From contig JBAXSP010000003.1 of assembly GCA_037130655.1 (NCBI GenBank), positions 68,684 to 132,683 of the forward strand: DNA of 64,000 nt, in the 5' to 3' direction. This stretch comes from a bacterium. GTDB taxonomy: Bacteria > Patescibacteriota > Minisyncoccia > Phycocordibacterales > UBA9973. Positions 23,470-27,046 of the stretch are shown here, piece after piece; positions within the stretch are counted from its first letter, which is position 1; each line of letters opens with the position of its first letter. The position numbers were made by a program, and so were the translations under genes. The notes below the pieces were generated by a model. The model made no database searches. It saw only the letters and a program-made list of their open reading frames with translations, and had not been told where the DNA came from.

Positions 23470-26400
23470 AATTTCCTAATAGAAATAAGTGCATATGGTG
23501 GATGCCTTGGCTTTGAAAAGCGATGAAGGACGTGGACTAGCTGCGATAAGTTTCGGGGAGGCGCTAATCAGCCTTTGATCCGGAAATCTCCGAATGGGGG
23601 AACCCCTTTGAGTAAACCTCATTGACTCTGACATTTTAGTCAGAGAGTATACCTTGGGAAGTGAAACATCTCAGTACCAAGAGGAAAAGAAAAGAAAGTC
23701 CGTAGGACAATATTTTGTTAGTAGCGGCGAGCGAAAACGAAAGAGCCCAAACCGATTTGTTATCAGCAATGATAAGAAATCGGGGTTGTAGGGTGACAAC
23801 GTCTATAAACGAGGAAAGTTACAAAGGATAAGTATAGAAGAAGTATCTGGAAAGATACGCCATAGAAGGTGATAGCCCTGTAAACGAAATGCTTATCTCT
23901 TTCTTGTTGTCATACCTGAGTAGTTCAGGACACGAATAGCTTGAACGAATCCGCCGGAACTAACCGGCAAGGCTAAATATTTTCAAAGACCGATAGTGAA
24001 CTAGTACCGTGAGGGAAAGGTGAAAAGAACCCCGAGAGGGGAGTGAAATAGACCTGAAACCGTATGCATACAAGGAGTCGGAGCCGACGATTTATCGTTC
24101 GGTCACGGCGTGCCTATTGAAGAATGAGCCAACGAGTTTATATATGCGGCTGGCTAAGCGGACAACCCGCGGAGCCGTAGGGAAACCGAGTATTAATAGT
24201 GCGAACTAATAGTCGTATATATAAGACCCGAAGCCAGGTGAGCTACCCATGAGCAGGTTGAAGTGACTCGAAAGAGTCATGGAGGACCGAACCGGTATGT
24301 CGTTCAACGCATTCGGATGACTTGTGGGTTGGAGTGAAAAGCTAACCGAACCTGGTAATAGCTGGTTCTCGCTGAAATAGCTTTAGGGCTAGCGTACATT
24401 GTACCCTTTGGGGGTAGAGCACTGGAAGATTTCGACAGGGAGCAATCTCGCGACATCTATCAAACTCCGAATACCAAAGACGAACTAATGTGCAGTTAGA
24501 CGGTGGGGGCGAAGCTCCACGCGTCAAAAGGGGAACAGCCCAGATCTCAAGTTAAGGTCCCTAAATTAATGCTGAGTGCATCTTAAGGAGGTGATATTTC
24601 TCCGACAATGAGGAGGTTGGCTTAGAAGCAGCCATCCTTTAAAGAAAGCGTAACAGCTCACTCATCAAGAGATTTTGCACCGAAAATAATCGGGGCTAAG
24701 CATTATACCGAAACTGAGGATGCGTACCAATCTACGGAAAGGTATGCGTGGTAAGCGAGTATTCGATTCTGCAGTGAAGCCAAAGGGGTGACCCATGGTG
24801 GAGCGTATCGAAGTAAGAATGTTGGCACAAGTAACCGCAAGTAGGGTGAGAGCCCCTGCCGCCGAAAGATCAAGGTTTCCATGGCAATGATAATCAGCCA
24901 TGGGTTAGTCGGTCCTAAGGGGATGGCGAAAGCCGCACCTGATGGACAAACGGTTAATATTCCGTTACTTCCGCATTGTGCGATGGAGGGACGAAGGGTT
25001 GTACTTATAGCGTCTAATTGGATTGACGTTTGTAGCGTGAGGATGTTTTGTAGGTAAATCCGCAAGATATAGTCCGAGCGAAGCAGAAATGTTGAGATAC
25101 GTCTCAATAGATTATAAGGAGCACGCTTCCGAGAAAATCTTCTAAGCATAACAATGCGGAATCCGTACCGCAAACCGACACAGGTGATCAGGTCGAGTAG
25201 ACCAAGGCGAACGAGTGATTGATCTTCAAGGAACTCGGCAAAAAAGCAGCCGTAACTTTGGAATAAGGCTTGCCCCCCACTACTTTGGATATTTCCAAAC
25301 AGTGGGAGAGTAAATTGAAATATAAAAAAATTGAGACACCCGCCTGAATGAAATTCATTTCGGGCAGGAAAAAGATAAATTTTGAACTCTCTACTATGGA
25401 AAGATACAGAAGTATCTGAAGTAGTGGGGGGCCGCAGCGAAAGTATCTCTGCCAACTGTTTATCAAAAACACAGCTCCCTGCGAACTCGTAAGAGGATGT
25501 ATAGGGGGTGACACCTGACCAATGCCAGAAGGTTAACTATCGGTGGTGTGTACATCACATGGAATGTGATGTCAGTCGTTAGTGATTAGTCATAGAGTCG
25601 TTAGGAAAACCTAAGTGACTAATGACTAAGAGACTGTCATCGCGCTTCGCGTGATGTGCATGCTGGCTGGTATAAGCCCTGGTGAATGTCGGCCGTAACT
25701 ATAACGGTCCTAAGGTAGCGAAATACCTTGTCGGGTAAGTTCCGACGCGCACGAATGGTGTAATGAGTGGAGAACTGTCTCGAAGATCAGCTCGGTGAAA
25801 ATACAGTACCGGTGAAGATGCCGGTTACCCACAGATAGACGAAAAGACCCCGGAAGCTTTACTGCAGCTTGATATTGGCTATAGTTGTTTGATGCGTAGC
25901 ATAGGTGGGAGAGGTTATGTACACGATTTCGGTTGTGTAATACTCGTCAGTGAAATACCACTCTTCAAATGGTTATATCCTAATCTGGACGGCAAAAACG
26001 TACAGAGACAGTATCTGGTAGGTAGTTTTACTGGGGCGGTACCCTCCTAAAGAGTAACGGAGGGGTTCAAGGGTCAGCTAGGCGCGAATGGAAACCGTGC
26101 CGATAGTGCAAGGGCATAAGCTGGCTTGACTGTAAGAGGGACATCTCGAGCAGACGCGAAAGCGGGACCTAGTGAACCGATCGTAGACATTAGATGTTGC
26201 GAAGGATTAACGGATAGAAGCTACTCCGGGGATAACAGGCTAGTTCCGCCTAAGAGTTCATATCGACGGCGGAGTTCGGCACCTCGATGTCGGCTCATCT
26301 TATCCTGGTGGTGGAGAAGCTACCAAGGGTTTGGCTGTTCGCCAATTAAAAAGATACGCGAGCTGGGTTCAAACCGTACAGATTGTGATTGTAATTTGCG

Positions 26401-27046
26401 TGTAGTACTAAAAGATTTATCTTCTAGTACTACACGCAGGTTGCAATCGTGACTTGTACCCGTTTGAACCCGAGGGATTACACTGTTGAGACATTTGTAA
26501 TCAAAAAAAGACATCATCACGGCGGATATATACAGCGATGTATATTTGCAATTCAACTTATATCGGTAGAATCCTGATGCACAGGACAATACCGAGGGAA
26601 AATTTTGTGAATTTCATAAAATTGCCCGTAGAGACTAAACGTTGAAGTTCTCTTCATTCGGAAGAGAATATATTATAGTCCGATCCCTTTGGTAACAAAG
26701 GTTCGCTCATACATTTTTAACGCGATGTATGTGAGAAGTAAAACATAGATGCGTGAGACAGGTTGGTCTCCTATCTACTGTGGGCGTTGATTCTTGAGGA
26801 GATCTGCTTCTAGTACGAGAGGACCGAAGTGGACTGACCTCTGGTGTACGGGCTCTAGCGCCAGCTGGACTGTCCGGTAGCTATGTTGGGAATGGATAAC
26901 CTCTGAAAGCATCTAAGAGGGAAGCCAGCTCCAAGATTAGGAATCGTTTGAGGGCCGTAGGAGATGACTACGTTGATAGGCACTAAGTGTAAGCACAGTA
27001 ATGTGTTGAGCTGAGGTGTACTAATTACCCGATCTATTAGGGAATT
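23470..27046 (+). rRNA. rrl: 23S rRNA (with insertions, including a group-I-like intron at 26378-26751)
   Basis: 5' GGTGGATGCCTTGGC. Internal conserved blocks (GTAACTATAACGGTCCTAAGGTAGCGAAAT; sarcin-ricin loop AGTACGAGAGGACC; 3' CTGAAAGCATCTAAG). Total ~3.58 kb, so several insertions relative to a ~2.9 kb bacterial 23S. Confidence 0.9.
26378..26751 (+). ncRNA. Putative ORF-less group I intron inside 23S rRNA (site near E. coli 2586-2596)
   Basis: ~374-nt insertion that interrupts the conserved GGGTT.A.AAC(G)T | CGTGAGACAG junction. The 5' exon ends in T and the insert ends in G. It contains a 13-bp perfect hairpin and no long ORF. Confidence 0.6.

Follow-up and report, generated by a model that had tools for sequence, protein, structure and literature searches.

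In a published survey, 82% of the 23S rRNA genes of candidate phyla radiation (CPR) bacteria carry insertions, 45% of these insertions are classed as group I introns, and Escherichia coli position 2593 is a frequent insertion site, usually with LAGLIDADG_1 (PMC11270868). CPR insertions have been described as removed from the transcripts (Brown et al. 2015, as cited in PMC11270868). Here, we describe a 374-nt insertion at this position in the 23S rRNA gene of a bacterium of the Patescibacteriota (Minisyncoccia; Phycocordibacterales; UBA9973), located in a 64,000-nt stretch of DNA (assembly GCA_037130655.1, contig JBAXSP010000003.1, positions 68,684–132,683 of the forward strand), which is referred to below as the window; positions are those of the window and on the + strand unless indicated otherwise. 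What is new is one more group I intron without an open reading frame (ORF), at a site already known as a hot spot of CPR 23S rRNA genes. Its sequence indicates that it is very probably removed by splicing.

The closest described elements are the 23IS12 insertions at position 2593 (Tsurumaki et al. 2024, PMC11270868; first noted by Brown et al. 2015), which share the CPR hosts, the site, and the Rfam group I class with the window intron. The ORF-bearing members of 23IS12 encode LAGLIDADG_1, as do relatives of the window intron, whereas the window copy itself is ORF-less. In the parts of that survey considered here, these insertions are characterized by Rfam and Pfam classes only, and the distal guide, anti-exon helix, 5′ hairpin, and tRNA cargo presented below are not described (PMC11270868). 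The same site (L2593) is occupied in chloroplasts and cyanobacteria (Cr.LSU; Synechococcus C9 and Thermosynechococcus; PMC1995217), and the endonucleases of the window intron's relatives are homologous to I-MsoI and I-CreI. Compared by description, the cyanobacterial L2593 introns have a P7.1/P7.2 extension of approximately 65 nt and an ORF (PMC1995217), whereas the window intron has only P8 and no ORF. ORF-less L2593 introns, several of them 306–323 nt long, also occur in DPANN archaea (Nawrocki et al. 2018, PMC6125680); these hosts are similarly ultra-small and derived from metagenomes of the same kinds of sample, but they are archaea, and their introns were assigned to subgroup IA3 with covariance models (PMC6125680).

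When the window 23S rRNA gene was aligned to E. coli rrlH with MAFFT, one 374-nt insertion was found at 26378–26751, directly after U2593 of the E. coli 23S rRNA. The 5′ exon ends in ...GGGTTCAAACCGT, the insert reads ACAG...AGATG, and the 3′ exon begins with CGTGAGACAGG; the last base of the 5′ exon is U26377, the last base of the insert is G26751, and the boundaries are unambiguous because the bases on either side of them differ. An earlier, sequence-only reading of the window had proposed an insertion of this length splitting the conserved junction ...ACCGU/CGUGAGACAG, with U closing the 5′ exon and G closing the insert, in a gene of approximately 3.58 kb, and the alignment agreed with it on all these points. 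The host gene (23475–27043; Rfam LSU_rRNA_bacteria, 2359.5 bits over the full model) measures 3569 nt and is followed by a 5S rRNA gene (27172–27278); after splicing it would measure 3195 nt, a length that is useful for annotation. The insertion interrupts the 5′ strand of helix 93 (H93), adjoining the peptidyl-transferase center, and is not at a helix tip. In the established ribosome structure, A2602 stands beside this point. The insert folds far more stably than its shuffled versions (z = −9.4). The assignment of 26378–26751 to a group I intron draws on these boundaries, on homologues at the same site, and on a covariance-model match.

The homologues were collected from species-representative genomes with a site-anchored pattern scan based on conserved core segments and the 3′ exon. 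At least 80 loci were detected, nearly all in metagenome-assembled genomes (MAGs) labelled Paceibacterota, Nomurabacteria, Yonathbacteria, and similar CPR lineages, and the hosts among the matches listed are Paceibacteria-type CPR MAGs, as expected of the CPR-type intron that had been proposed. Complete introns were present in 73 of the loci listed; they are 304–777 nt long, each follows U2593, and each ends in G. The window intron and these 73 relatives constitute the 74 introns to which the family counts below refer. Among the matches listed, the 23S rRNA exons of the window are closest to those of the MAGs L002 (91.5%), L054 (89.9%), and L020 (88.6%), and the same three MAGs hold the introns most similar to that of the window. 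The window and L020 introns are 91% identical (340 identical columns in a 374-column alignment), which, together with the close relationship of the exons, fits vertical inheritance within the clade. The differences between the two introns are mainly in the loops and peripheral hairpins and preserve the structure: two are changes from G-C or A-U to G·U in the 5′ hairpin, and one P9 pair is fully compensatory (U-A to C-G). Such structure-preserving changes since the split from L020 indicate that the structure is still under selection.

No ORF contained in the insert exceeds 42 amino acids, and the ORFs overlapping it gave no significant Pfam match (only E = 0.06, far below the cut-off), so that the ORF listing and the Pfam scan both agree with the earlier statement that the insert lacks a homing-endonuclease gene. 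Three ORFs lie inside or across the 23S rRNA gene and its intron, at 24703–25455 (−, 250 amino acids), 26126–26452 (+, 108 amino acids), and 26320–26589 (−, 89 amino acids). The 108- and 89-residue ORFs, which are the two covered by the Pfam scan, overlap the intron and have no credible match. Gene finders would mis-call all three ORFs, which are almost certainly spurious.

The window intron therefore lacks the endonuclease that would characterize an autonomous mobile L2593 element. Seven of its relatives carry a LAGLIDADG ORF of 144–148 amino acids within the P6 loop; two of these ORFs were scanned against Pfam, and both are LAGLIDADG_1. The closest solved structures for the ORF of one relative are I-MsoI, I-CreI, and I-CvuI (E = 5e-28 to 1e-16 for I-MsoI and I-CreI). 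These three proteins are the classical homing endonucleases of the L2593 site in chloroplast genes. Because seven relatives bear the gene in P6, the window intron can be regarded as an ORF-less, non-autonomous derivative. The family would spread by means of a LAGLIDADG homing endonuclease of the I-CreI/I-MsoI type, the gene for which lies in the P6 loop, and the window copy would either have lost this gene or never have had it and would now be inherited vertically. A look-up of the neighboring FtsW protein for intron-less alleles returned one 4.5-kb Logan contig, which ends short of the 23S rRNA gene.

A sensitive Rfam scan of 26330–26800 (471 nt) produced a full-length match to the Intron_gpI model (RF00028) at 26505–26702, with a score of 42.6 bits (E = 1.2e-9) and with the AGACUAAA and UAUAGUC segments conserved. 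This is the covariance-model check that had been suggested for the proposed group I type, although the score lies below the gathering score of the model (50 bits), and the Rfam scan of the whole window at gathering did not match the intron. Among the same-site relatives, 5 of the 16 scanned passed gathering, with 51.6–71.2 bits. The family thus straddles the threshold, and its membership in group I therefore rests on homology and structure.

The structure was evaluated with an alignment (A1) of 40 ORF-less relatives, which begins at the guide and includes everything 3′ of it in the intron. The alignment supports P2, P3, P4, P5, P6, P8, and P9, with a total of 44 pairs, 30 of which show compensatory change, and with 94.3% of the cells paired. 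The covariation score of the core was 0.559, compared with 0.18 in shuffled alignments (none of 500 reached the observed value) and approximately 0.1 when the partners were slid. The attempt at a group I fold that had been recommended on the basis of the letters thus yielded a P2–P9 structure with a P3/P7 pseudoknot that is backed by covariation.

The P2 hairpin (26528–26545) has 7 bp and a GCGA tetraloop (26535–26538); all eight of its aligned pairs show compensatory change, and its loops in the family are mostly GNRA and flanked by A/U. P3 (26552–26557 with 26641–26646), in which 6 of 6 pairs are compensatory and 98% are paired, encloses the P4–P6 domain and the 5′ strand of P7. The pairings P4 (26563–26568/26590–26595), P5 (26572–26576/26582–26586), and P6 (26596–26598/26625–26627) are retained in 95–100% of cases, and P6a is formed by 26601–26609 and 26615–26623. 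In P7, which forms a pseudoknot with P3, the 5′ strand G-(A bulge)-GACUA at 26631–26637 pairs with UAGUCC at 26676–26681; it is invariant in all 40 sequences and agrees with the Rfam consensus. P8 (26647–26669; 6 of 6 pairs compensatory) is the sole hairpin between the 3′ strands of P3 and P7, so the P7.1/P7.2 extension is absent. J8/7 and the 3′ strand of P7 occupy 26670–26681 (AUAUUAUAGUCC), and both UAUAGUCC and GUAGAG (J6/7) are invariant across the 40 aligned sequences. The P9 hairpin (26686–26701; 5 of 6 pairs compensatory) ends in a GUAA tetraloop (26692–26695), and L2 and L9 are therefore both GNRA tetraloops. Between P9 and the splice site (26702–26751), the minimum free energy (MFE) fold contains a P9.1-type hairpin (at about 26702–26737), followed by the 3′ tail GUAAAACAUAGAUG, which ends at G26751; a terminal G is present in all 74 introns. 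RNAalifold also paired GGC of the guide with GUC in the 3′ strand of P7, a pairing that competes with the invariant P7 and was rejected as an artifact of a pseudoknot-blind method.

All positions that are invariant in the 40 relatives are intact in the window intron, including the guanosine-binding pair of P7, J8/7, the guide, and the terminal G. The bulged A of P7 and the G-C pair next to it have the layout of the guanosine-binding site in well-studied group I introns, and G26633–C26680 is the predicted guanosine-binding pair. Several helices are expanded in the same gene, and the insert could on that account be regarded as one more lineage-specific expansion segment that is kept in the ribosome. 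We consider this extremely improbable, given a full group I core with covariation, homologues that bear homing-endonuclease genes, and an insertion point that interrupts a universally conserved strand of a helix instead of extending its tip.

In every one of the 74 introns, two further conserved pairings, designated here helices A and B, occur between the splice site and the guide. Helix A joins the 5′ exon to the intron. Its exon strand, UGGGUUCAAAC at 26364–26374 (exon positions −14 to −4, about E. coli 2580–2590), comprises the central-loop strand of the peptidyl-transferase center and the start of H93, and it pairs with the anti-exon GUUUGAACCCG at 26462–26472. An exon complement of 9–13 nt is present in all 74 introns (8 nt in the outlier L024). 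The helix has 11 bp in the window and 10–11 bp in the family, and positions −12 to −4 are paired in 93–100% of 60 distinct sequences. An A/G polymorphism at exon position −6 covaries with U/C in the intron (A-U in 43, G-C in 14, G·U in 3, and A-C in none), and nearly all substitutions in the anti-exon are wobble-compatible or compensatory. For helices A and B together, 92.9% of the cells are paired, and the covariation score is 0.317, compared with 0.14 in shuffled alignments (0 of 500 reached the observed value).

Helix B (26378–26457) consists, in the MFE fold, of the first four intron bases, ACAG (26378–26381), paired with UUGU (26454–26457), and it closes a hairpin of approximately 30 bp (26383–26452). 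Four to five pair types occur at each of the positions +1 to +4, with 95% pairing across the family, and the hairpin stands where a P1 extension and L1 loop would normally be found. The 13-bp perfect hairpin picked out by the sequence-only reading (26398–26410, GCGTGTAGTACTA, with 26425–26437) is real and forms the core of this longer hairpin; it is more accurately described as part of a lineage-specific extension of helix B that lies outside the catalytic core. The long hairpin is common to the closest subgroup, in which the stem sequences are wholly different (that is, compensatory) and the tip is conserved, and it is absent in one sister intron. A second copy of the 13-bp hairpin arm was not found in the window, and its interpretation as a dispersed repeat or mobile palindrome was rejected.

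Helix B is separated from the anti-exon by the linker ACCC (26458–26461), which lies opposite exon CGU and offers it G-C and U-A pairs, the latter between U(−1) and the 5′-most A of the linker. Across the family, this linker is 2–4 nt long (ACA in 39, UA in 11, ACCC in 10, and a few others). A second linker (26472–26516) connects the anti-exon to the guide; it contains a GAGGGA motif (26472–26477), a lineage-specific hairpin (26476–26482/26496–26502), and an A-rich segment ending in ...AAGACAUCA. Nearly all relatives have GAGGRA after the anti-exon. In the window, GAGGGA could pair with J7/9–P9 over 8 bp, but this pairing fails across the family.

The hairpin at the splice site bears on whether the insert is in fact spliced out. 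If the group I intron is decayed or unable to splice, it might persist in mature 23S rRNA, a situation reported for L1931 of Simkania, or the insert might be cut out and the exons left unligated, with RNase III cleaving the 30-bp hairpin and the long splice-site helix to give a fragmented 23S rRNA. The near-perfect duplex at 26376–26459 resembles an RNase III substrate, and the 30-bp hairpin within the insert could serve as one; long hairpins also expand the gene elsewhere, the Rfam match falls short of the gathering score, and a maturase or endonuclease ORF is absent. Bacterial 23S rRNA insertions that are unspliced or processed by RNase III are on record in the literature (PMC11270868). We nevertheless consider retention or unligated excision very unlikely. 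Every position invariant in the 40 relatives is intact, and the changes since the split from L020 keep the structure. RNase III cleavage in L1 would leave the core in place, and an interruption of helix 93 beside A2602 seems hard to square with an active peptidyl-transferase center. Precise ligation of the exons would give the junction ...AACCGU-CGUGAGAC.... An intervening sequence of the RNase III type, that is, a simple extended hairpin that replaces a helix tip (classically in H25 or H45) and is cut out with the exons left unjoined, was also considered and rejected, as the insert lies in the 5′ strand of H93 and has a full ribozyme core. We therefore retain the interpretation that the insert is, in all probability, a spliced group I intron.

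The candidate internal guide of this intron, UCACG/GCGG, is located at 26517–26525. Of the 74 introns, 70 have exactly the sequence CACGGCGG; the element always abuts P2 on its 5′ side, and apart from the catalytic core no segment is better conserved. Its GCG(G) portion is complementary to (C)CGU of the 5′ exon, including a U26377·G26522 wobble, and the exon strand of the proposed 3-bp P1 is CGU at 26375–26377 (−3 to −1, with U26377 as the splice-site U), opposite G26522-C26523-G26524. The UCACG portion (26517–26521) is complementary to CGUGA at the start of the 3′ exon (26752–26756), the exon strand of a proposed P10. The group I-type 5′ junction assumed in the sequence-only reading thus stands insofar as a guide able to form U·G exists, but this guide lies 140 nt into the intron rather than next to the splice site, whereas a guide would usually be expected within a few bases of the intron start; across the 74 introns, the distance from the 5′ splice site is 57–371 nt. 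The four introns that depart from CACGGCGG differ by one change each, two of them C-to-U (with G·U kept) and the others at the last G. When metagenomes were scanned for variants of this last position (CACGGCGH), there were two hits, in which the CPR exons were unchanged and no covariation was seen. The last guide G therefore varies without exon change, the position appears unconstrained, and P1 is effectively 3 bp long. Metagenomes were also scanned for family introns followed by a 3′ exon of the E. coli type (…CAGTT), which might have revealed exon–guide covariation, but there were no hits.

A compact guide of this type has a functional parallel. The pre-tRNA-Ile intron of Azoarcus (subgroup IC3) has a core of approximately 200 nt, a 3-bp exon–guide pairing, a guide 5′ of P2, and GNRA loops on P2 and P9. 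The window intron shares the compact core, the proposed 3-bp guide pairing, the position of the candidate guide 5′ of P2, and the GNRA loops L2 and L9, which we regard as a functional analogy, with no homology claimed. The two differ in the helix adjoining P1, which in Azoarcus is the anticodon stem of the tRNA and joins exon to exon, whereas in the window it is helix A and joins exon to intron. They also differ in the distance between guide and splice site, which is a few bases in Azoarcus but approximately 140 nt in the window.

The proximal helix, made up of helix A, the CGU/ACCC segment, and helix B, might instead be the true P1, in which case U-A would mark the splice site and the distal CACGGCGG would either have no role beyond exon alignment in the second step (P10 plus re-pairing) or act otherwise. 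This arrangement would have the textbook P1 topology, in which the exon and first intron bases are paired with one continuous, loop-capped intron strand. The proximal helix is strongly supported, and U(−1)-A and G(−2)-C pairs occur in 61 and 58 of the 74 MFE folds, respectively. Nearly all group I introns have a U·G wobble at the point of cleavage, where it is the recognized determinant of specificity, but the proximal helix offers U·G in only 2 of the 74 introns. Moreover, CGU is left unpaired in 11–12 introns, the UA-loop group with an AGAG-type 5′ end, and the 3′ strand of helix B lacks complementarity to the 3′ exon, which would preclude a P10 at that place. By comparison, the distal element is invariant, gives both U·G and P10, and sits directly 5′ of P2 as in Azoarcus. 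We thus consider a proximal P1 unlikely, and we prefer the distal guide because it is the sole source of U·G and P10, is the most conserved segment outside the core, and occupies the guide position of compact introns.

Several observations nevertheless weigh against our interpretation of the locus. As noted above, the Rfam score of the window intron falls short of gathering. The analysis establishes the insertion, the family membership, the core helices, helices A and B, and the invariance of the guide, whereas removal by splicing, the catalytic role of the distal guide, and the function of the clamp are deduced from the sequences. The catalytic P1 would span only 3 bp, its fourth position varying freely, and the exon–guide pairs are invariant, so they offer no covariation test of the pairing. 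The linker pairings of U(−1) and G(−2) in the MFE folds compete with the proposed P1, and a conventional annotator could label the proximal helix P1. In 2000 dinucleotide shuffles of the window sequence alone, a junction guide score of at least 8.5 arose in 106 and an anti-exon score of at least 10.5 in 18; both features are thus only modestly improbable in the window by itself, and the weight of the evidence comes from their conservation across the family.

The L1931 introns in the same MAGs bear on the same question. ORF-less introns of 200–226 nt are present at E. coli position 1931 in L022, L026, L043, L044, L046, L061, and L075. Their first element, beginning at the splice site, is a hairpin, and next comes a 12-nt anti-exon, UAGGACUGUUAU, that pairs with exon positions −16 to −5; further downstream, GCUACCU is complementary to the ligated exons AGGU/AGC and is followed by a GNRA-capped hairpin. 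A clear U·G pair was not found in these L1931 introns, and this too counts against the splice-site pairing proposed here. Their layout supports a shared design, but the model of the splice site may be incomplete.

A working ribosome would require removal of the intron and joining of the exons, which would follow the standard two-step, guanosine-initiated route. Guanosine would enter at the P7 pair G26633–C26680, the U26377·G26522 wobble would mark the 5′ splice site, P10 (26517–26521 with 26752–26756) would align the 3′ exon, and the terminal G26751 would complete the set of elements, and the distal guide, which we infer to be the catalytic one, would serve both splicing steps. The role of helices A and B would be to anchor the 5′ exon on the ribozyme and to offer CGU to the guide, for which two arrangements are conceivable. 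In one, A, P1, and B would be stacked in this order, which formally makes a pseudoknot, and the short linker would lie beside the 3-bp P1. In the other, C and A of the linker would be paired with G(−2) and U(−1) in a closed state, which would then change to the active U·G state. On balance, we lean towards this specific mechanism of a clamp and a distal guide, with limited confidence. It is possible, though rather doubtful, that the whole family uses such a split substrate-binding design, in which a distal guide is combined with a tether formed by the anti-exon helix and 5′ hairpin and of which no description was found; we put this tentatively because the chloroplast, cyanobacterial, and archaeal L2593 introns might share the clamp and guide, in which case the design would be old but unremarked.

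Five relatives have tRNA genes inside their L2593 introns, on the strand of the rRNA gene (Rfam tRNA, 57.9–68.3 bits): L014 (2049–2124, +), L032 (1217–1293, −), L078 (3073–3149 and 3160–3234, +), L061 (4802–4876, −), and L081 (460–532, +), in the coordinates of the respective loci. In L014, L032, and L078, the tRNA is located at the tip of helix B (L1), with a flanking stem of approximately 25 bp, and is followed by a terminator-like hairpin; L078 has two such genes. In L061 and L081, the tRNA lies within the P6 loop, the usual place of the endonuclease gene. In the searchable literature, we found no earlier account of tRNA genes located inside group I introns of rRNA. Processing of these tRNAs would break the intron and so separate the ribozyme from the 5′ exon, and a clamp on the exon is attractive in functional terms for that reason.

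The sequence-only reading had also pointed to other expansions of the 23S rRNA gene, at 25.27–25.44 and 25.53–25.68 kb. These are real (25274–25452 and 25544–25673) but are helix extensions and not introns, as they have no covariance-model hit and fold as simple long hairpins. The hairpins extend over 25272–25432 and 25538–25680, corresponding to about E. coli 1708–1770 and 1861–1888, and the second has a nearly perfect stem of approximately 55–60 bp (z about −7). Both could be retained expansion segments or intervening sequences excised by RNase III.

Upstream of the 23S rRNA gene, neither a 16S rRNA gene nor a spacer tRNA is found within the window; protein ORFs reach 23123, leaving a spacer of 23124–23474. 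The rRNA genes therefore appear to be unlinked, with only 23S and 5S together. The 5S rRNA gene is bracketed by a 22-bp inverted repeat (27158–27179/27270–27291), probably a processing stem. Elsewhere in the window is a divergent pair of tRNA-Ser genes, at 41885–41972 (−) and 42041–42128 (+), one with the anticodon GCU and the other with ACU; the latter is unusual in having A at the wobble position, within the anticodon loop UUACUAA (Rfam, 54.8 bits).

If the proposed arrangement is correct, the tip of the 5′ hairpin would be a cargo bay, holding the 30-bp hairpin in the window intron and one or two stem-flanked tRNA genes in its relatives, and splicing could proceed after excision of the cargo, effectively in trans. 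Until splicing, helix A would presumably sequester the peptidyl-transferase strand G2582–C2591, including G2583–U2585. A working clamp would account for the retention of a 2.9-kb 5′ exon by compact ribozymes whose P1 has 3 bp and for their tolerance of large or processed insertions in L1, and it would represent a natural counterpart to the extended guide sequences that have been engineered into trans-splicing ribozymes.

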